This document shows positions 8,898 to 49,598 of a DNA stretch of 64,000 bases, one piece after another (position 1 is the first letter of the stretch; every line of letters begins with the position of its first letter). The notes under the pieces are model-generated. The model was not told the DNA's origin. It did not search any database and worked only from the letters and a program-made list of their open reading frames with translations. This DNA comes from a phage: the sequence record PX645697.1. One strand, 5' to 3'. Both the position numbers and the translations under genes were made by a program.

Positions 8898-8906
8898 TAA
8901 TGTATA
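8898..8906 (+). promoter_or_regulatory. TAATGTATA promoter-like motif (candidate phage sigma factor promoter)
   Basis: exact 9-mer 34 nt upstream of ATG 8940, directly after a terminator. Confidence 0.5.
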
Positions 8907-8939: not shown

Positions 8940-9692
8940 ATGGCAATGCCAGATGTTCAATACCCCATCAATACCTATGGGTGGCTAAAGAAGGCCGTGG
9001 CCCTCTGGGCAGATAGGGACGATGACGAATTTGTTAATCAAATTCCAAACTTTATTAACTTTGCAGAGAAAGAGATTTATCGTAACTTACGTATTCCTCC
9101 TCTGGAAAAAGAAGTGTATTTAGATATCAAAGATGGAGTAGCTTACATTCCTCCTGATTACTTAGAAGCTCAATGGATGATGAGAGCCAAAGATGGTACA
9201 ATCTTCCAAGTAACCTCTCCTGAGGAGATTAGCTATCGTAGACAGCACGGAACAATTAATCCATCTCATTGGAATAATCAACCTGTTAACTTTGCTCGTT
9301 TCGGGAGTCGTTTCATTTTCTATCCTAATATTGAAGCAGATACTCCGTACTATCCTGATGATGGAAGTCCTTTGATTCCCGCAGAAAACTCAGTAGTTCT
9401 TAGCTATTATGCAGACCCACCGGAATTCCACGAAGATACAGATACCAGTGCTATTCTTACTATCGCACCAGAACTTCTTCTGTATTTCACTCTACGTCAT
9501 GCTTGCTTGTTTGTTCAAGATGATAATGGTGTTCAGAAATGGTCAGCATTAGGAAAAGCTATCCTTGATGAAATGGTAGAACAGAATAAGAAACAAGAGT
9601 ACTCAGGTTCGCCTATCGCAATTCCGAATAACATGACTCGACTTCAGAGCAGCTTGCCTGATATTTATGGTATTCGTACTTCTCGTGTATAA
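8940..9692 (+). CDS. hypothetical virion protein (possible head-tail adaptor or tail tubular protein)
   Basis: 250-aa ORF with SD AAGGAGG; position between capsid and tail fiber genes. Confidence 0.5.
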   Translation: MAMPDVQYPINTYGWLKKAVALWADRDDDEFVNQIPNFINFAEKEIYRNLRIPPLEKEVYLDIKDGVAYIPPDYLEAQWMMRAKDGTIFQVTSPEEISYRRQHGTINPSHWNNQPVNFARFGSRFIFYPNIEADTPYYPDDGSPLIPAENSVVLSYYADPPEFHEDTDTSAILTIAPELLLYFTLRHACLFVQDDNGVQKWSALGKAILDEMVEQNKKQEYSGSPIAIPNNMTRLQSSLPDIYGIRTSRV

Positions 9693-9701
9693 GGAGATAA
9701 T

Positions 9702-12482
9702 ATGATCGTTTATAATAACCAAGCACCTGATGCAGTGAATAACGTTGGGCAGTTTGGTGCTACTGAAGGCTCTATTGGAGCTTATAAGCAAGCCGCAGAA
9801 TATGCAGCTGACTCCAAATATTGGGCACTGTTAGCAGAGTCTAAGTTTGGTACAATTGATGACTTGATCGCTGAAGTAGAACGTCTGTATCAACAAGGTG
9901 TTCTGATGAAGCAAGATATTGAAGATCTTAAGCAGGACTTTAAAGATCAAGATGCTCGTCTGATGAGCTTGATTGCTCAGACTAATGCAGCAGTATCTGA
10001 TGCAAATAACGCAGTCGCCCTGATTAACCAGAAACTCATTGAAGTTCAGAATCAGCTTGATGTTCTGTTAGGAATGTCTGTTGATGTAACAACTCTCCCT
10101 CCGGGAACTCCGGCTACTGGCTCTTTTAATCCTAACACTGGTGTAATCTCTTTAGGTATTCCAGAAGGTGATCCCGGAAAAGATGGTTCTGTTAAGGATT
10201 TGGATACAGCACCTACAGGTGTTCCAGAGCTAGGTGATTTAGGTTTCTATGTTGACAAAGATGACAATACCGTCCACAAAACTACTCTAGATAACATTGC
10301 TAACTTAATCCCATCTGTTCGTTCTGTCTCTATTAACGGAGGTCCAGCTCTTGATGGAGAGGTTGCTCTAACACTTAACAAAGAGACGGTAGGTTTAGGA
10401 AATGTTCTGAACGTTGCTCAGTACAGTCGTCAAGAGATTAATGACAAGTTTGACAAAACTACCAAGACATACCAATCAAAAGCAGAAGCTGATGCTGACG
10501 CTCAGTATCGTCAAGTTGGTGAGAAAGTCTTAGTCTGGGAAGCTACTAAGTATGAGTTCTACACTGTTGCTGCCAACAAAACGCTAACCCCTGTTAAGAC
10601 TGAAGGTAGGATCCTTACCGTTAACTCTCGCTCTCCGGACTCAAGTGGTAACATTGATATCACTATCCCAACAGGAAACCCATCTCTGTATCTCGGTGAG
10701 ATGGTGATGTTCCCTTATGACCCAACTAAGAATATCTCCTACCCAGGAGTTCTTCCTGCCGATGGTCGTTTGGTATCAAAAGAGTCTGCTCTAGATTTAG
10801 GCCCATCCCTTGTCAGTGGACAACTTCCTGTTGTTTCTGAAACTGAATGGCAAGCTGGTGCTCGTCAATATTTCTCTTGGGGTAAATTGGCTGATGGTAT
10901 TACTGATGCTGATTCTTCTAACTTTATTAATATTCGTCTGCCAGATTGGACAGGTGGTGAGGCTATTCGCTCCCCTGATACTAGTAAAGATGCTAACTAT
11001 AAAGGTAGGGTTCAATCTCAGATTCCTTATATAGTAACCGTAAATGGAAAAGCTCCTGATGATACTAACGGTAATGTAGTTCTGACGGCAGCTAATGTTG
11101 GAGCAGCAGCCTCTGGTGCTAATTCTGATATCACATCTCTCAATGGATTGACCACCCCCTTACCTGTGTCACAAGGAGGTACAGGATCAACAACGATAGA
11201 TGGAGTTAGGTCTATCTTAAGAGTAACACCATTTACGACTGAATCTTCCCATGCTTTTGTATTCTCTCCAAATCGTTTACATAGAATAGTTCTGAGGGAT
11301 GACGGGCTTTTTACTGTACAGAAGAGAGATGCCGACACTTCTGAGGCATGGGAGACCAATCCTGTGTCTATAGAGTTAGGTGGTACAGGAGCTACTTCAG
11401 CTTCTGAAGCTAGGGAGAATCTTGGTGTTGGTGCTATTTCAACTATAAGCGGATATACTGCAATACAATCCCCCAATAAAAATTACCGGCTAATGCTTGG
11501 TAATGAGGGCACTTTTGTCTACCAAACAACAGAGGGCAATACAGCTCCAATCCCTATAGGGTCAGGTGGTACAGGAGCTATATCTGATATTGCTGCTCGT
11601 GTCAACTTGAAAGTGGACAAACTTGTTCAAAGTTCAACAGACACAAAACTGCTAGATGGTTCTGGAGACCACACCTTCTTTATTACAGATGCAGATTGGG
11701 GGTATTTCAATAACTCCGATTCTTCTCGAATAGCTTTGCCGGTAATAAGTGGCGGTACAGGAGGGAAGACTCCAGCCGAAGGTTCTGAAAAACTAGGGGC
11801 AATGCATTGTCAGTACGGTCAATCAACTTTTTATGGTAGTGGAGATTTACCAACTGGTATTGGATTCTACAGCGGGGACACATCACCTTTTCCGGGAGGT
11901 AATGGGGCACCCTTCACATATGCGGAGATAATGACTATTGCTGAAGGCGGTCGTGGAGGTAACTGGTCCCAAATAGGGTTCTCTACTATCACATATGAAG
12001 CCCCTCGCTATAGACAAAGGACTAGTGACCCCTCTTTAATCACAAACTGGCGTGACTTCTTAGTAAGGGATTTGAACACTACCGTAGATGTTAATGGTTT
12101 TGTTAAGATTGCATCGCCTATAGTCAAACTAAAATCTGACGGGTCTTCTGAAGTCAATGACCAAGCCCAAGGAGTAACAACCGAAAGATTAGATGTTGGT
12201 GTCTATAAAATCTCTGGAGTTCTAGGTTTTAACTCAGACCCTTCTTGGGGAGGTAATAGTGGCGGTTTCTCTATCCCTCAGAACTCTAACGGATTACCTC
12301 TTCTTTGGGTTGATTATGAAGTTGATGAAGAAGGTGATATTACTCTGAAAACTTACCATCGAACTCACGAGGGAGTTCCTTCTTTTGCAAGTAATGTAAT
12401 AGATGGTGTGATGGATGGTGAACCAATTGACATCCCTTCTGGAAGATGGATTGACCTTCGTGTTGAGATGCCTTCTAAATGA
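9702..12482 (+). CDS. tail fiber protein with phage tail-fiber repeats
   Basis: 926 aa; four copies of a GGTGxT...AR.NLG repeat (e.g. IELGGTGATSASEARENLGV); coiled-coil N-terminus. Confidence 0.7.
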   Translation: MIVYNNQAPDAVNNVGQFGATEGSIGAYKQAAEYAADSKYWALLAESKFGTIDDLIAEVERLYQQGVLMKQDIEDLKQDFKDQDARLMSLIAQTNAAVSDANNAVALINQKLIEVQNQLDVLLGMSVDVTTLPPGTPATGSFNPNTGVISLGIPEGDPGKDGSVKDLDTAPTGVPELGDLGFYVDKDDNTVHKTTLDNIANLIPSVRSVSINGGPALDGEVALTLNKETVGLGNVLNVAQYSRQEINDKFDKTTKTYQSKAEADADAQYRQVGEKVLVWEATKYEFYTVAANKTLTPVKTEGRILTVNSRSPDSSGNIDITIPTGNPSLYLGEMVMFPYDPTKNISYPGVLPADGRLVSKESALDLGPSLVSGQLPVVSETEWQAGARQYFSWGKLADGITDADSSNFINIRLPDWTGGEAIRSPDTSKDANYKGRVQSQIPYIVTVNGKAPDDTNGNVVLTAANVGAAASGANSDITSLNGLTTPLPVSQGGTGSTTIDGVRSILRVTPFTTESSHAFVFSPNRLHRIVLRDDGLFTVQKRDADTSEAWETNPVSIELGGTGATSASEARENLGVGAISTISGYTAIQSPNKNYRLMLGNEGTFVYQTTEGNTAPIPIGSGGTGAISDIAARVNLKVDKLVQSSTDTKLLDGSGDHTFFITDADWGYFNNSDSSRIALPVISGGTGGKTPAEGSEKLGAMHCQYGQSTFYGSGDLPTGIGFYSGDTSPFPGGNGAPFTYAEIMTIAEGGRGGNWSQIGFSTITYEAPRYRQRTSDPSLITNWRDFLVRDLNTTVDVNGFVKIASPIVKLKSDGSSEVNDQAQGVTTERLDVGVYKISGVLGFNSDPSWGGNSGGFSIPQNSNGLPLLWVDYEVDEEGDITLKTYHRTHEGVPSFASNVIDGVMDGEPIDIPSGRWIDLRVEMPSK

Positions 12483-35762: not shown

Positions 35763-35771
35763 TATACATTA
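35763..35771 (-). promoter_or_regulatory. TAATGTATA promoter-like motif upstream of SSB-like gene
   Basis: exact 9-mer on - strand about 59 nt upstream of ATG 35703. Confidence 0.5.
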
Positions 35772-43991: not shown

Positions 43992-44173
43992 TTCACAACC
44001 TTAAATTTGAATGTTGTTGGGTGATAATAGTGCAACCTATTAATAGTGTGCTTTGTTTCAAGATATATCCTACAGGAGTGGCACATAACATGAGACAAAC
44101 TAGTCACAGGATTGGGCTTAAAATTGATGATAGGCTTCTCTTTCTTACAGAAGCTACAGACTTTCTTTTCCAT
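43988..44173 (-). CDS. small zinc-ribbon protein (start refined)
   Basis: MEKKVCSFCKK ... MCHSCRIY: two CxxC pairs. Confidence 0.45.
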   Translation of the reverse strand: MEKKVCSFCKKEKPIINFKPNPVTSLSHVMCHSCRIYLETKHTINRLHYYHPTTFKFKVVK

Positions 44174-44387
44174 CTTTTCTCCAGTGGTCAACGAACTGCT
44201 GAAACACTTTACGGTCAAATGTGAAATTACGAGCAATTCCGCATTCTCTAAAAGTGGCAGGCATATAATCTACATCACCTTCAGATGTATGACCATAGAC
44301 TTGAATAAGCTTCTTAATCTTATCCTTCTCTCTTCGAGGAAGCATTCTAAATGCCTCCTGAATATCTGTAATATGTTTTATCTTCAT
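44154..44387 (-). CDS. hypothetical small protein
   Basis: 77-aa ORF. Confidence 0.45.
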   Translation of the reverse strand: MKIKHITDIQEAFRMLPRREKDKIKKLIQVYGHTSEGDVDYMPATFRECGIARNFTFDRKVFQQFVDHWRKDGKESL

Positions 44388-44533
44388 CAGAAATTCCTGC
44401 TAATCCTCTGAGTTGTGGGAACAGCAATATTCACATACTCCACAACAAGGGCAAATTTCTACACTTGGGTCATATGCATCATCAACTGTCATCCCACACT
44501 TGGTGCAGAACACATCATCATCTTCTTCCAATA

Positions 44534-45190
44534 TTAACTCTCCAAAGTTTTCTTCAGAGCTGCCCACGAGATTGGGTAGATCTTAGCCATCTCTTCGTCT
44601 ACGGATTTAGCAAACACTCGAACTTCATATTGAGCGTGAGATGAGAGTCGCTGACGACACAGCTCAAACCAGCCATACAAAGAACCAGTCCACACCCACT
44701 CAGTGATCATCCCCTGAGGAAGAACAAATCGAGCTTGCTCTGGTGCAATAAATTCAATCAACTTGTCATATGCTGCTAGAGAATCTTCATATGCATCGTT
44801 AATCAGCATTAATGCTTCATCTCGCTCTCCGTCGATGAGTTGAATCCCTGAACCTGCATGGAGGTCCGCAGGTCTCGCAAAAATCTCTTTAGGGATGAAG
44901 ACTTCAACTGCTCCATCTTTATACCGCCGGGACATTTCGTTCCACGAGAATCCAACCTGATGCTTGCCCAACTGTCTCGCAATTGCGATAGGTGCTTTGC
45001 ATCGGAAACTGACTTGTGGGTGTCGGAATGGAGTAACATGCTTCTCTCTTGCGAGGAAATTGATGAGACGTTCATCACGTTCATTTAAATCACCTTCACG
45101 GGTTACACCAAAGGAAACTCGAGCTGCGTTTACTACAGTTTTATCCGAGCCTAAAAACTCTACCAGTTCTGCTTTAAGCTGATCATTCAT
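44534..45190 (-). CDS. ThyX-like protein (flavin-dependent thymidylate synthase family) with divergent signature
   Basis: AARVSFG N-terminal motif and KHQVGFSWNEMSRRY in place of the canonical RHR-x7-S motif; start refined to ATG 45190 with GGAGAG SD. Confidence 0.55.
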   Translation of the reverse strand: MNDQLKAELVEFLGSDKTVVNAARVSFGVTREGDLNERDERLINFLAREKHVTPFRHPQVSFRCKAPIAIARQLGKHQVGFSWNEMSRRYKDGAVEVFIPKEIFARPADLHAGSGIQLIDGERDEALMLINDAYEDSLAAYDKLIEFIAPEQARFVLPQGMITEWVWTGSLYGWFELCRQRLSSHAQYEVRVFAKSVDEEMAKIYPISWAALKKTLES

Positions 45191-45635
45191 TACTTTTTCT
45201 CTCCATCCATGAAGCAAGTTTTCTAACTTCCTCTATCGTTATATCACTTTTTAACCTATTTACTCTTCTTGACAAAAAGGTCACATTCCCTTGAACGTAC
45301 CCTTTGTCTGGAATAAATCTGTCAAGCTCAGCTAAGTCATCAGAACCTTTTTCACCATCTATCTTTATAGGCGTATCTAATACCGGACAGAATCCAGTCC
45401 AAATAGACTCTAGATACTCAGGAGTTAAATCAAAAGGTACGTTATCCCTTTTTGCTTTTATTTTAGTTCTGACATTCTTTAATTTAAAAGGTTGTGTCCT
45501 TTTATATTTTAGATATCTAGCTCTTTGACTTTCGTTGGCGCAAGAATAACAATAAGGCCGTAACCTACCAGACCTATCATTACGCACAGGAAATTGATCT
45601 ATGTCCAAATCCTTTTCACAGGAATTACAGATCAT
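45183..45635 (-). CDS. zinc-finger / degenerate HNH-like nuclease-fold protein
   Basis: 150 aa; N-terminal CNSCEK...CYSCAN; C-terminal DRFIPDKGYVQGNVTFLSRRVNRLK resembles HNH with His replaced. Confidence 0.4.
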   Translation of the reverse strand: MICNSCEKDLDIDQFPVRNDRSGRLRPYCYSCANESQRARYLKYKRTQPFKLKNVRTKIKAKRDNVPFDLTPEYLESIWTGFCPVLDTPIKIDGEKGSDDLAELDRFIPDKGYVQGNVTFLSRRVNRLKSDITIEEVRKLASWMERKSNE

Positions 45636-45700
45636 CGATCGCTTCCCATAGCTTCGATTAATGTTGCTTGTAATTGTTCATTCATCCGTGAATTTCCCTA

Positions 45701-45901
45701 TTAATATTCTTTTACACAATAAACCACTAAGGTTCCTTGATCTGTTAATATTGACTTATGTAAGCTGACATTACTATAAAACTTTGGAGCTATCTTAAGG
45801 GCTTTCTTAAAACGACGAGCTTCTTTACGAGTAGCAAAGTGCTCTGTTACAGGAACTTTGTCGTTGTGTAGATAGTAAACTACTGTCCAATATTTTTTCA
45901 T
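45701..45901 (-). CDS. small protein, member of a 5-copy paralogous family (TRKEARR.KK motif)
   Basis: MKKYWTVVYY...ATRKEARRFKK...; family-wide N-terminal MKK.W, central [TS]R.EAR, C-terminal aromatic end. Confidence 0.5.
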   Translation of the reverse strand: MKKYWTVVYYLHNDKVPVTEHFATRKEARRFKKALKIAPKFYSNVSLHKSILTDQGTLVVYCVKEY

Positions 45902-46176
45902 AATTTAATACCCAAAGCAGTTACTAAGAAAGCTTTCAGGTTTGCTTCGGTCTGCATACCAGATAAGCTATAATGTGCATCGCTGTTACGATTAGGCACA
46001 ACGAAAGCAGGGATACTTCGTACACCATACTTAACAGCTTGTTCACGACCATCACCTTCAAGGATGTTAATCTCTTCTACTTCTACATCAAACTCCTTAA
46101 CAACCTTCTCAAAGGTAGGAGCCATTGCTTTACATGGAGCACACTGATCACTATAAAACTTAATTACTTTACTCAT
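45898..46176 (-). CDS. thioredoxin
   Basis: MSKVIKFYSDQCAPCK with CxxC active site; AAGGAA SD; start refined from 46230. Confidence 0.7.
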   Translation of the reverse strand: MSKVIKFYSDQCAPCKAMAPTFEKVVKEFDVEVEEINILEGDGREQAVKYGVRSIPAFVVPNRNSDAHYSLSGMQTEANLKAFLVTALGIKL

Positions 46177-46366
46177 TCTATTCCTTGTTAATAAACAGGT
46201 TGATATGACGCTGGGTAGCAGGAACAACAATAAAAGATTTATACTGACCTTTTGCTAGGTCATGAGCAATCTTCTTTGTCTGACCAAGACCCATCACACA
46301 GCCACTAACGATAATGGCATGTGCTTGTAATTCTTCAGGTAGGTTTAGTTTCACTCTTTGGATTCC

Positions 46367-46552
46367 TTATAGCATACAAAGAATAATAACAAGAGGTAGT
46401 GTTATAGCAAAATGTACCAGAACAACACTACCTAGCTTGATAGCTTTAACATCCTCTTCTGCTGGGTTTTCTTTAATTGCTAAATTTCGAGCTTTATATA
46501 TAACAGTACCAACTATTAACGACCACACGGCCCACACAATCAGTGAAATCAT
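46367..46552 (-). CDS. small two-TM membrane protein
   Basis: 61 aa; MISLIVWAVWSLIVGTVIY ... VVLVHFAITLPLVIILCML. Confidence 0.45.
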   Translation of the reverse strand: MISLIVWAVWSLIVGTVIYKARNLAIKENPAEEDVKAIKLGSVVLVHFAITLPLVIILCML

Positions 46553-46561
46553 ATCAAATCC

Positions 46562-46741
46562 TTATGCAGTCAGGAGGTGAAGCAGGAATGGGATAACAAC
46601 AGCTACGATAACCATGATAGTTGATGCTGTTTGAATCTCACCTTTCTTATCAGGGGTTTCTTCAATAAGCTTACCAGAAGCCCAATAAATACCACCACCA
46701 ATAAAGATAGCCCAAATACCCCATACGATTGCTGATAACAT
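46562..46741 (-). CDS. small two-TM membrane protein, paralog of 46367..46552
   Basis: hand-translated 59 aa MLSAIVWGIWAIFIGGGIYW...TIMVIVAVVIPFLLHLLTA. Confidence 0.4.
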   Translation of the reverse strand: MLSAIVWGIWAIFIGGGIYWASGKLIEETPDKKGEIQTASTIMVIVAVVIPFLLHLLTA

Positions 46742-46802
46742 ATATCTATATCCTTATAAATAAGTTCGCCCCACCTCGGGTTAGGAGACAGGGCGGAGGT
46801 TT

Positions 46803-47366
46803 TTAGTAAGACACATCACCACTTGAGTGGGACATGTTGCTCTTGACAAAGTAGCAATACTTGCCAAGACCTTCATTAATTTCTTGAAGCATACTCTGAT
46901 CAACTGGATAAGTGACTAAATCACCATCAAACTCATCCATCTTCTCAATAATACACAACAAGGTCATGCACATATCAGAGAGCATTCCATCCATGTCTAG
47001 ATCAGCATTACCCTCTGAGAACCAAGCATGAGAGAGGTAGTTAGCTGCTGTAGCGTCCACTTTAACACAGTGGTAACGCATACGTTCAGCAATACGATCT
47101 CCTACCTGTCGTGCGTAATCTTCCAGCTCGTCAAACATACCATGAACACCCTGAAATCCTGCACCAGAGACGTTCCAGTGGTAGTTTTTAGCTTTAATAT
47201 GCAAGAGTTCCATGTTAGCTTGTAAGCAGCTTAGGATGTGTTCTAGGTTGTTTCCGCTAATCATGCCCTGCATAGTTTCAAGGCGAGAGATTGAAAGCTC
47301 AGATCGGTCTAACATGTTATATTCTGCACGACCGATTTCAGGTAAATCAAAGACATTCTTATGCAT
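46803..47366 (-). CDS. Dps/ferritin-like protein
   Basis: HIKAKNYHWNVSGAGFQGVHGMFDELEDYARQ resembles the Dps helix A/B signature; start refined to ATG 47366. Confidence 0.5.
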   Translation of the reverse strand: MHKNVFDLPEIGRAEYNMLDRSELSISRLETMQGMISGNNLEHILSCLQANMELLHIKAKNYHWNVSGAGFQGVHGMFDELEDYARQVGDRIAERMRYHCVKVDATAANYLSHAWFSEGNADLDMDGMLSDMCMTLLCIIEKMDEFDGDLVTYPVDQSMLQEINEGLGKYCYFVKSNMSHSSGDVSY

Positions 47367-47688
47367 TTGGGTTATCTCCATCAAGTTCAACTGAATTAGC
47401 AACGTTACGTTCGATGTTTGCCATCACTTGCTGCGTTATGACAATGCAGTTCTGTGGGTCAACTGATTTAGAACGCCCCATTTCAGGGTCATACACTTTA
47501 ACTCGCTTAGCAGTTGAACCTGTAACCTGAAGAACCTTCAACAGATATCCCTGATTACCAATAGACCATGCAACAACATCACGATTCTTGATGAATCGAC
47601 CAAGCATATCACGATGATAGAACTGCTGCATAACCTTTGATTTATTAATCTCTTCGGCTGGCGGAGCCACTTTACTCAAATCTAACAT
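47359..47688 (-). CDS. hypothetical protein
   Basis: 109-aa ORF with SD GGAGAGAG; promoter-like motif upstream. Confidence 0.5.
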   Translation of the reverse strand: MLDLSKVAPPAEEINKSKVMQQFYHRDMLGRFIKNRDVVAWSIGNQGYLLKVLQVTGSTAKRVKVYDPEMGRSKSVDPQNCIVITQQVMANIERNVANSVELDGDNPNA

Positions 47689-47727
47689 TTCACTCTCTCC
47701 TGTTTAACACAATATTCTTATACTGTA

Positions 47728-47736
47728 TATACATTT
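47728..47736 (-). promoter_or_regulatory. AAATGTATA promoter-like motif (one-mismatch variant of TAATGTATA)
   Basis: on - strand 40 nt upstream of ATG 47688; same spacing as exact copies. Confidence 0.4.
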
Positions 47737-47760
47737 GAGAGTGATCATATCTACTACCAA

Positions 47761-47970
47761 TCAGTAGTAAATTACTTTAGACATAAAAGAACCAGTGTTA
47801 GGGTCTTCATACCAGCGATGTATGTCAGCGCTTTTTACTATTGTGCCCAGAGTCTTCAACTGTTTCTTAGCAATACGAGCCTCTTTGCGAGTGTCAAACA
47901 ATTTGATGCTATCTTTTCTCATATGTTGCTCAAGATCCCAAACAACATGAATAGCCCACATCTTTTTCAT
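47761..47970 (-). CDS. small protein, paralogous family member
   Basis: MKKMWAIHVV...DTRKEARIAKK...VIYY. Confidence 0.5.
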   Translation of the reverse strand: MKKMWAIHVVWDLEQHMRKDSIKLFDTRKEARIAKKQLKTLGTIVKSADIHRWYEDPNTGSFMSKVIYY

Positions 47971-48185
47971 TAGTAATGTACCTTTCCGCTGATATAAATA
48001 CGGCCTGAGGTATACTCATAGCCCTTGAGAATCTTAATAGAGATAAGATATCCAGTGTGTAATTCACTGAACGATTTCTTAAGCCTACGTGCATCTTCTC
48101 GTGTTTTCTGGTAGGCCATGGTCACCCCCCCACTTGTCCACTCTGTCTTAACTAACCAAATTCTTTTCATAAGACCTGCCCTCAT
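47970..48185 (-). CDS. small protein, paralogous family member
   Basis: ...KRIWLVK...KTREDARRLKK...KVHY. Confidence 0.5.
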   Translation of the reverse strand: MRAGLMKRIWLVKTEWTSGGVTMAYQKTREDARRLKKSFSELHTGYLISIKILKGYEYTSGRIYISGKVHY

Positions 48186-48397
48186 TAGTAGTACACCTTG
48201 CTTCCAGCCATGAACGCCCCTGTCGAGCTTATCATGGCTTTGCTGATAGTAACTTTCTTACACCGTAAACATACCTTCCAGTTCTTTTTACAGATTCGAG
48301 CTTCTTGTCGAGTGTTACAAAAAATAGCCGAAGATATTTCTTGGGTGTTGTTATCATAAACACGAACACACCACTTTTTCATTGTTCCAAACTCCAC
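48185..48397 (-). CDS. small protein, paralogous family member
   Basis: ...MKKWCVRVY...NTRQEARICKK...KVYY. Confidence 0.5.
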   Translation of the reverse strand: MEFGTMKKWCVRVYDNNTQEISSAIFCNTRQEARICKKNWKVCLRCKKVTISKAMISSTGAFMAGSKVYY

Positions 48398-48588
48398 TAT
48401 CTGTCAACCGATTCAGGGACAAACTGCATTACACAGACCTGATTACGAGGAAGGTTTATTTCACAAGCGGTTTTTCTATCAGCAACCTTAGATGACGAGT
48501 TAGGGCCAATTTGAGCCATCATTAATCCCATAGCTAACATGCCGAGGATTACACCAATTGCTAGAGATGCTACAGTTTCTTGTTTCAT
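48397..48588 (-). CDS. small membrane/secreted protein
   Basis: 63 aa; hydrophobic LAIGVILGMLAMGLMMA segment. Confidence 0.45.
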   Translation of the reverse strand: MKQETVASLAIGVILGMLAMGLMMAQIGPNSSSKVADRKTACEINLPRNQVCVMQFVPESVDR

Positions 48589-48603
48589 ATCGGATACACT
48601 CTA

Positions 48604-48852
48604 TCAGTAATATATCTTTTCATTGATAACCAAAGTGTCGTAATTCTCTGTCTGAGAGTGGACCGCTTTGTGAATAGTAGCTACTACATCAACAGCATCT
48701 TTAAAGCGTCGATAATGGTTTATGGTTACTTTTTTGAGACGTCTAGCCTCCTCTCTTGAGGGAAGCTGAGTTTTTAGAACAGTGATTTTACCTGTTGAAA
48801 TCTTGGTAATCACAACTTTCAGTGCCCAACAATCCAGAGCAGCCTTTTTCAT
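48604..48852 (-). CDS. small protein, paralogous family member
   Basis: MKKAALDCWALKVV...PSREEARRLKK...KIYY. Confidence 0.5.
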   Translation of the reverse strand: MKKAALDCWALKVVITKISTGKITVLKTQLPSREEARRLKKVTINHYRRFKDAVDVVATIHKAVHSQTENYDTLVINEKIYY

Positions 48853-49055
48853 TTTACTAAACCCTTCATGTAGTCATAAAGATCATTAGAAGCTTTACCC
48901 CATTCAAGGTGCTTCTTATCCATATAACTCTTACAAGCTTCTTTACTGCTTTCATCACAAGTATCAAATCGATGACATGCTCGACCAAATGTCATAGCTT
49001 TTAATTGAACCTCGGTAGTCAAACCTTTCAGTTCTTGGAACTCTTCTTCAGTCAT
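48849..49055 (-). CDS. hypothetical small protein
   Basis: 68-aa ORF, tiled. Confidence 0.45.
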   Translation of the reverse strand: MTEEEFQELKGLTTEVQLKAMTFGRACHRFDTCDESSKEACKSYMDKKHLEWGKASNDLYDYMKGLVK

Positions 49056-49589
49056 TTACACACCTTTAGATGCAACTACACCTTCAGAGTTATTATAACG
49101 ACCCTTCACTGCATAGGAATGTTCCCCTGCATGAGAGTGCTCAAACATCACCATCTGACCAACACGCATACCAGCACGAACTCGTAAGCTATGATGCTTG
49201 GTTACGTTATGGAACTCAAATGTCAGCTTACTGCTGTTAAACCCTGCGTCTGCCCACCCGGCGTGGAGGTGGTTCAAACCACAACGAGCCATAGATGAAC
49301 GTAGGACAAACAGACTTGAGATGTTATCTGGAAGATTAAACTCCTCCATGGAGTGAGCCAAGAAGAACTGACCCGGAGTGATAACCAAACCCTCTTCAGG
49401 AATCTTTACTTCCTTCCACTGAAGATTCTCTTTCGCATCAATATCAACGATGCCATCAGCCTGTTCTTCAACAAGGATAGTATCACCAATACGGATATCC
49501 ACACTAGCAGCGTTAACATATTTATGCTCCGCATTCAGATAGCCATTGTCAATTACATCGTGCAGTTCAATACTTCCTAGTAAACTCAT
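49056..49589 (-). CDS. dCTP deaminase / dUTPase-family protein
   Basis: 177 aa; LRSSMARCGL matches the dCTP deaminase GRSSLARLGL signature. Confidence 0.65.
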   Translation of the reverse strand: MSLLGSIELHDVIDNGYLNAEHKYVNAASVDIRIGDTILVEEQADGIVDIDAKENLQWKEVKIPEEGLVITPGQFFLAHSMEEFNLPDNISSLFVLRSSMARCGLNHLHAGWADAGFNSSKLTFEFHNVTKHHSLRVRAGMRVGQMVMFEHSHAGEHSYAVKGRYNNSEGVVASKGV

Positions 49590-49598
49590 TCTTATTCC

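Follow-up and report, generated by a model that had tools for sequence, protein, structure and literature searches.

The 64,000-nucleotide stretch of phage DNA analysed here (record PX645697.1; hereafter the window) is that of a phiEco32-like coliphage of the subfamily Gordonclarkvirinae, and between positions 45,701 and 48,852 it carries five small open reading frames (ORFs) that are a genuine paralogous family, already clustered as PHROG 4939. We call them copy S, which lies beside the thioredoxin gene, copies A, B and C, which follow one another in an array, and copy X, a longer variant between the dCTP deaminase gene and that array (Table 1). In about 100 genomes its members carry the annotation of hypothetical protein, and our literature search found no paper that mentions these gene products, a study of prophage sRNA in Kuravirus infection having no bearing on them. 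What is new here is descriptive throughout, namely the slot structure, the copy-number range, the basic character, the fold and the promoter boundary, and we tentatively favour a role in binding a polyanion, nucleic acid being the likeliest. We rate the interest of the finding as modest, since a catalogued hypothetical family is a good candidate for simple experiments and no surprise in itself. PhiEco32-like phages nevertheless occur in abundance, infect a broad range of hosts and are therapeutic candidates, and a family that is near-core, multi-copy and lineage-specific, and that sits beside the dCTP deaminase/nucleotidyltransferase locus, is a cheap and well-defined experimental target.

Five diverged members of one family

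All five ORFs proposed by the first-pass annotation are present, all on the minus strand, and the independent profile phrog_4939 is matched along its whole length by each of them (positions 1-67; for the 82-amino-acid copy X, 5-67), with E-values of 9.6e-22 for S, 1.7e-28 for C, 1.3e-20 for B, 1.1e-25 for A and 6.3e-5 for X. Direct BLASTP comparison of the copies gives weak matches (25-33% identity over the longer alignments; E from 3e-4 to >1 for a database size of 20,000), and copy-specific ortholog profiles match one another by hhalign at E 3e-9 to 2e-3, with copy X matching the other subfamilies at 1e-4 to 1e-3. The paralogy claimed from shared motifs is confirmed both by the single profile common to the five copies and by these profile-to-profile matches. 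The motifs themselves also held up on alignment: in sets of 53 and 39 sequences, the five window copies included, W5, R28 and R32 are invariant and little or no variation is seen at T27, A31, K35, K36 and the C-terminal Tyr, while M1 and K2 are near-invariant in the family alignment. The family signature (W5 / T27-R28 / A31-R32 / K35-K36 / C-terminal Tyr) is thus invariant or at least 90% conserved and, written as the regular expression W.[VILAMT].{10,30}[TS]R.[ED][AGS]R..K[KR], it picks exactly the five copies among 1,272 six-frame ORFs and is absent from all 500 residue shuffles. A scan with a hidden Markov model (HMM) found no sixth member in the window. At the DNA level the copies share repeats only in the motif codons and at the start/stop junctions, which speaks against recent duplication. 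The surrounding region (45000-49600) was matched by 99 Escherichia/Shigella phage records in a Megablast search, with no record covering 80% of the query; the top match, KBNP1711, is 89% identical over 79% of it, in three pieces.

The structure predictions point to one beta-beta-alpha-beta-beta fold for short and long copies alike, as the proposed paralogy had led the first-pass annotation to ask. Copies C and X were modelled individually with AlphaFold2, the 69-amino-acid copy C being predicted as a compact fold (predicted local distance difference test, pLDDT, 88; predicted template modelling score, pTM, 0.71) and the 82-amino-acid copy X as the same fold with longer hairpins (pLDDT 84, pTM 0.70), and a Foldseek search of BFVD recovered members from EK010, WFI101126, SU10, KBNP1711 and ECBP2 at query-normalised template modelling (TM) scores of 0.65-0.85. 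All 81 distinct members are strongly basic, with isoelectric points of 9.5-11.1 and net charges of +5 to +12. The basic residues R28, R32, K35 and K36 share one face of the helix (spaced as i, i+4, i+7/8 and i+11), joined there by K39 in 67% of members, and A31, L38 and L41 form the hydrophobic face opposite this stripe; the variable residues concentrate at positions 10-26, 40-46 and 53-65, and the hairpins are the variable parts. No meaningful family match was obtained in Pfam, either for the five window proteins or for 39 diverse members, nor in NCBIfam, PADLOC or a PDB sequence-profile search. A lead suggested by an 'F.T..EA' motif, to DUF2188 and to the RNase H1 hybrid-binding (Cauli_VI) domain, was not borne out, the former being found in none of the 39 members and the latter in one of them at E = 0.15.

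Distribution, slots and copy number

A word-indexed search of 5.8 billion proteins returned 48 clusters, all of 64-82 amino acids and with long contigs of about 77 kb, and an exhaustive HMM search of cluster representatives returned 38 with E <1e-3 among 1.84 billion, one of which, a repetitive protein of 1,518 amino acids, we take to be spurious. The family is confined to the phiEco32-like lineage and, within it, to two fixed genomic slots: the first holds the array, between the dCTP deaminase gene and the genes for a 109-amino-acid protein and Dps, upstream of promoter P68, and the second holds one copy between thioredoxin and ThyX. Both are kept even in the most divergent metagenomic members, all of them in phiEco32-like contigs, and so is the synteny with the dCTP deaminase gene (dcd) and the genes for the nucleotidyltransferase, exonuclease, primase-helicase, Dps, thioredoxin and ThyX. 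Full-length ORFs are conserved over three genera as well as metagenomes.

Copy number varies in relatives from two to five per phage, as the first-pass annotation had suggested a homology search might reveal. According to an HMM scan of 16 loci, there are two copies in SU7 and PAS59, three in phiEco32 (gp69-71), EP335, NC-B and ECBP2, and four in KBNP1711, 4E8, MN05, Paul and a metagenomic contig where the four are consecutive; the five of the present window are the maximum seen. The subfamilies are unequally spread across 50,697 deposited phages searched by tblastn: type B, of the middle slot, was found in 99 records, type C, of the last slot, in 95, type A, of the first slot, in 65, the thioredoxin-adjacent type S in 41, and the 82-amino-acid type X in a single one, TH42. 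Two of the phiEco32 genes, phi32_69 and phi32_70, figure among 69 listed core genes.

Immediately upstream of copy A is a variable slot, which in the window holds copy X together with two genes that are not family members, orf63 and orf68. It is empty in phiEco32 and EP335, and holds orf68 alone in MN05, Paul and 4E8, orf63 alone in KBNP1711 and ECBP2, and both X and orf63 in TH42; X, orf63 and orf68 stand together in the present window. Among the compared loci orf63 was found only in KBNP1711, ECBP2 and TH42, and orf68 is present in MN05, Paul and 4E8 and absent from KBNP1711, phiEco32 and TH42; by position, the 207-nt coding sequence (CDS) SU10_072 sits in the orf68 slot of SU10.

Three more distant occurrences may be recorded. 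In the metagenomic contig L010, an additional weak family member lies between Dps and thioredoxin (9514-9711; E 3e-6), and the four-in-a-row array mentioned above (L006, 64-912) includes a 78-amino-acid member whose clade is unrepresented among deposited phages. Cronobacter phage GAP52 has a possible remote single-copy relative, gp065 (L017, 38271-38513, minus strand; 80 amino acids), which lies beside DNA polymerase I and carries the motif W...YDTRKAAR (HMM E 0.007; hhalign P 9e-4). It is probably the protein K4F7F6 found by Foldseek at a TM score of 0.70, another CDS of GAP52 being equally 80 amino acids long; its close homologs occur in three phages only (five records), and similar structural matches were obtained in Salmonella phage SE131, Cronobacter phage 009 and Aeromonas phage LAh_8.

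Promoter P68 and the timing of expression

The minus strand of the window bears the early and middle genes and the plus strand the late genes, which fits a switch in GC skew near 30 kb and agrees with the published phage genome layout (PMC8948821). Directly downstream of the array lies an element, AAATGTATA, that is exactly the variant listed for the phiEco32 promoter P68 (aAATGTATA; PMC8948821 Table S3), a promoter that experiments have used as a middle one dependent on gp36/gp79 (PMC12276001). In all 16 genomes that we compared, both the element and its flanks are conserved. Read leftward, none of the six known phage-sigma promoters lies further upstream than P68, so that the array with copy X forms the tail of a long unit beginning at the sigma70 early promoters. 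P68 marks a transcription-unit boundary, and copy S lies in the middle unit that it drives.

The temporal class of the array itself rests on secondary statements that partly disagree. Its neighbours are genes of replication and nucleotide metabolism, and some 25 kb separate it from the sigma70 early promoters. By homology to phiEco32, CDS69-125 of SU10 were classed as early and CDS25-68 as middle (PMC4281155), and the array genes correspond to SU10_069-071, the end of that early block; for phage 7-11, gp79, whose gene lies upstream of the array, was treated as a middle-gene product, and the polymerase/nucleotide-metabolism cluster as middle (PMC8948821). The first-pass placement of the family in an early region is consequently upheld in part: it agrees with the SU10 classification of the array, is weakened for the array by the assignment of gene 79 and by the distance of the early promoters, and does not hold for copy S, downstream of a middle promoter. 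We infer that the array lies across the boundary between the early and middle classes and that read-through transcription probably arrives there late. Around the array, sigma70-type promoter matches are not above chance (18, against 20.5 expected from shuffles); no convincing terminator was seen within it, and no Rfam match was obtained in 44000-50000.

Other signals of this kind were observed elsewhere in the window. A strong stem-loop, with 11 pairs of which seven are G-C, stands just downstream of the Dps-like gene and may be a terminator or processing site in the middle unit. Exact matches to TAATGTATA occur six times, at 8898, 20699, 25933 and 35835 on the plus strand and at 35763 and 41965 on the minus strand, those at 35763 and 35835 forming a back-to-back pair about 70 bp apart; with a further match, TAATGTAGA, at 1379 (plus strand), and the P68 variant, the promoter-like matches in the window outnumber the six published gp36-dependent promoters.

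Ancient paralogs under gene-wide purifying selection

In a neighbour-joining tree, the members group by slot and not by phage, which indicates that the duplications predate the split of Kuravirus, Nieuwekanaalvirus and Suseptimavirus. The paralogs are accordingly ancient, and every slot represents a stable line of orthologs. Pairwise NG86 ratios of nonsynonymous to synonymous substitution (dN/dS), for which dS is often saturated, are 0.27-0.32 for S, A, B and C (0.27 for copy S); copy X gives 0.07, from a single usable pair. These ratios imply that the genes are coding and constrained, and the gene-wide selection estimated from them is purifying. The neighbouring orf109, dcd, Dps, ThyX and thioredoxin genes have ratios of 0.06-0.16, so that the family evolves faster at the protein level, at 3-5 times the rate of its neighbours. 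The diversifying selection that had been proposed for these genes is, therefore, not what the gene-wide ratios indicate, although the accelerated rate relative to the neighbouring enzymes agrees with the spirit of that proposal.

Slot alleles are 33-100% identical between phages, those of dcd and orf109 being 89-100% identical with one exception, the 58% of dcd in the metagenomic L010. Nearest alleles differ even between adjacent copies, since copy C is 100% identical to that of MN05, copy B 97% to that of NC-B and copy A 100% to that of 4E8, and in most Kuraviruses the alleles of copies A and B are about 50% and 52% identical, respectively, to those of the window. The bimodal pattern of identity is seen likewise in orf59, orf61 and the nucleotidyltransferase gene, and because these other small ORFs and the nucleotidyltransferase are equally mosaic, allele shuffling is not specific to the family.

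The nucleotidyltransferase gene, which adjoins that of dCTP deaminase, has two deeply divergent alleles: phiEco32, MN05, Paul and L010 carry one that is 80-87% identical to that of the window, whereas identity is about 30% in nine other compared loci, which comprise the Nieuwekanaalvirus and Suseptimavirus phages, several other phages classified as Kuravirus, and the metagenomic L009. Two small predicted membrane proteins, of 61 (MISLIVWAVWSLIVG...) and 59 (MLSAIVWGIWAIFIGG...) amino acids, look like tandem paralogs of each other, and their identity in relatives is either 33-34% or 100% for the one and 49-53% or 98-100% for the other, a bimodality that, judged on sequence, suggests allele or paralog replacement.

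Gene starts, junctions and neighbouring genes

Copies A, B and C abut via TAATG junctions. The first-pass annotation described all three as contiguous through 1-nt stop/start overlaps, and this is true of the B-to-C junction, at 47970, which was kept in every relative examined; at the A-to-B junction it depends on which ATG serves copy B, of which the upstream candidate overlaps the preceding stop (TAATG) and the downstream one has GAGG ahead of it and the family-typical N-terminus MKRIW. The ORF of copy A extends mechanically to a GTG at 48397 (70 amino acids), and its start is most likely the internal ATG, which is preceded by GGAG and yields a family-consistent MKKW... N-terminus. The start of copy X overlaps the stop of orf68 (ATGA).

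At the other slot, a 150-amino-acid ORF with a C-x2-C ... C-x2-C pattern, which we read, by position and motif, as a putative HNH-type homing endonuclease, overlaps the 5' end of the ThyX ORF, and no ortholog of it was found in 13 compared loci. A different HNH gene occupies the thioredoxin-ThyX slot in SU7, EP335 and PAS59, and an HNH gene there sometimes replaces the family copy in relatives.

Table 1. Positions in the window of the five family members and of the features discussed with them
Feature	Position	Strand	Description
Putative HNH ORF	45183..45635	-	150 amino acids; between ThyX and copy S
Copy S	45701..45901	-	66 amino acids; single copy between thioredoxin and HNH/ThyX; S clade of the tree
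Thioredoxin gene	45898..46176		Adjoins copy S
Membrane protein	46367..46552	-	Small, predicted; 61 amino acids
Membrane protein	46562..46741	-	Small, predicted; 59 amino acids
Stem-loop	46767..46795	-	Downstream of Dps-like gene
P68 element	47728..47736	-	AAATGTATA; in the 72-nt gap directly downstream of the array
Copy C	47761..47970	-	69 amino acids; final array gene; corresponds to phi32_69 / SU10_069
Copy B	47970..48185	-	Middle array gene; 71 (ATG 48185) or 66 (ATG 48170) amino acids
Copy A	48185..48382	-	Leading array gene; 65 amino acids from ATG 48382
Variable slot	48397..49055	-	Copy X, orf63 and orf68
orf63	48397..48588	-	Small predicted membrane protein, phrog_7508; between X and A; not a family member
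Copy X	48604..48852	-	82 amino acids; rare long-hairpin variant between dCTP deaminase and the array
orf68	48849..49055	-	phrog_2347; upstream of copy X; not a family member
Nucleotidyltransferase gene	49599..51002	-	Adjoins dCTP deaminase

Possible functions

The strong basic charge, together with the conserved stripe on the helix, leads us to favour the reading that the family proteins bind a polyanion, most likely nucleic acid, and do so with paralog-specific hairpins, a possibility to which we would give somewhat less than an even chance. Binding would occur via the Arg/Lys stripe (R28, R32, K35, K36 and often K39) on a solvent-exposed face of the helix, which T27 would precede as N-cap, and the further conserved basic positions K2, K/R8 and K/R52 would assist. 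Through the variable beta-hairpins, each paralog would acquire a specificity or partner of its own, and the retention of several non-redundant copies would thereby be explained. The role envisaged is an accessory one: the proteins might serve the DNA metabolism of the phage, the protection of its genome or the regulation of genes around the switch from early to middle expression, and they would be neither classical enzymes nor DNA-mimic inhibitors. The fixed synteny described above and the position of the possible remote relative in GAP52, beside a DNA polymerase, were counted in favour of this reading. Several points weigh against this interpretation: the surface exposure of the stripe is deduced from helical periodicity, a high positive charge equally fits binding to an acidic protein surface, and the raised dN/dS, the copy-number variation and the shuffling of alleles suit conflict-driven accessory genes at least as well. 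In addition, SU10 proteomics detected CDS65, 67, 68 and 74 and did not detect CDS69-71, which is weak evidence because the proteins are rich in Lys and Arg.

The first-pass annotation put forward host takeover or anti-defence as the role of the family. Worked out as a rival explanation, the paralogs would be inhibitors that each neutralise a host protein of their own, for instance a nuclease or a component of a defence system, and the family would expand, contract and exchange alleles in the conflict between host and phage. We consider this rather unlikely. It would account for an array that lies in a block classed as early for SU10 and phiEco32, for a copy number that ranges from two to five beside a variable slot, for the mosaic alleles of neighbouring genes and the accelerated evolution of the family, and for its restriction to a single lineage of phages (38 of 1.84 billion representatives); moreover, Gordonclarkvirinae are reported to show remarkable resistance to restriction-modification (RM), with no known modification pathway or inhibitor (PMC11990801). 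However, the gene-wide selection is purifying, the paralogs are ancient positional orthologs of which two are near-universal core genes, and all of them have in common an invariant basic motif, a point in favour of a single shared ligand and against a range of different targets. The mosaic alleles, as noted, are found equally in other small ORFs and in the nucleotidyltransferase of the same module, and the proteins are basic, unlike mimics of the Ocr/ArdA type and most anti-CRISPR (Acr) proteins. With no homology found in PADLOC, Pfam, NCBIfam or PDB, the proposed link to takeover or anti-defence is left unsupported by our searches. The dCTP deaminase/nucleotidyltransferase locus has been proposed to explain this resistance, and in the BASEL paper it is suggested that the locus might underlie a DNA modification (PMC11990801). 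A more specific proposal starts from the same resistance, the route of which is unexplained: the family would be the missing factor for broad RM resistance, binding phage DNA or blocking host nucleases and so shielding the genome. The proteins would then be made from the long leftward early transcript, and the diversification of paralogs and alleles would extend the protection to different host systems. We regard this as a long shot.

The organisation of the array raises the question of whether co-expressed paralogs form a hetero-oligomer, for example a chromatin-like or scaffold particle of the phage that needs several subunits. The stop/start overlaps, the B-to-C junction kept in all relatives and the constant co-occurrence of B and C would fit such an assembly, and in the predicted topology the four-stranded sheet has one face that the single helix does not cover and that could receive a further subunit; nevertheless, arrays of two, three or four copies all appear viable, copy S belongs to a separate transcription unit, and the alleles of neighbouring genes recombine independently, which would disrupt co-adapted interfaces, so that we judge this explanation improbable. 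The lack of a known function, along with the missing CDS69-71 in SU10 proteomics, could also mean that the ORFs are non-functional, being chance ORFs or decaying duplicates, or that they encode small basic virion-internal proteins, but we think there is very little chance of either. Ratios of dN/dS well below 1, full-length conservation in three genera and in metagenomes, Shine-Dalgarno-like sequences, conserved junctions and confident fold predictions argue against the former, and the location of the genes in the early/middle leftward cluster, not in the late structural one, and their absence from the virion-enriched proteome speak against a virion role.

Comparison with known systems

The closest known relatives are those within PHROG 4939, an entry without functional annotation that includes gp69, gp70 and gp71 of phiEco32, SU10_069-071, and gp064 and gp071-073 of KBNP1711, of which the window copies are positional orthologs. 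The window differs from these relatives in having five copies, one of them the 82-amino-acid variant otherwise deposited only in TH42, whereas phiEco32 has three and is without the thioredoxin-adjacent one. Outside the family, neither sequence nor structure comparison found homology to known anti-defence or defence-associated families, and DNA mimics of the Ocr/ArdA type need a strongly acidic surface, contrary to the basic nature of all 81 family members. The small anti-CRISPR proteins AcrIIC3 and AcrIC8 were taken into the comparison alongside Ocr and ArdA. The RNA polymerase-binding regulators phiEco32 gp79, T7 Gp2 and Xp10 P7 resemble the family in being of similar size and lineage-restricted, and gp79 shares with it the leftward early/middle gene cluster; indirect evidence speaks against membership in this group. 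Nucleoid proteins of the HU/IHF-like and Sso7d/Alba types are alike in their small size, positive charge and possible multi-copy use; their topology is different and no sequence or specific structural match to the family was obtained, which leaves membership in those nucleoid-associated families unsupported. By analogy with them, nonetheless, the family may work in the manner of small basic architectural DNA-binding proteins.

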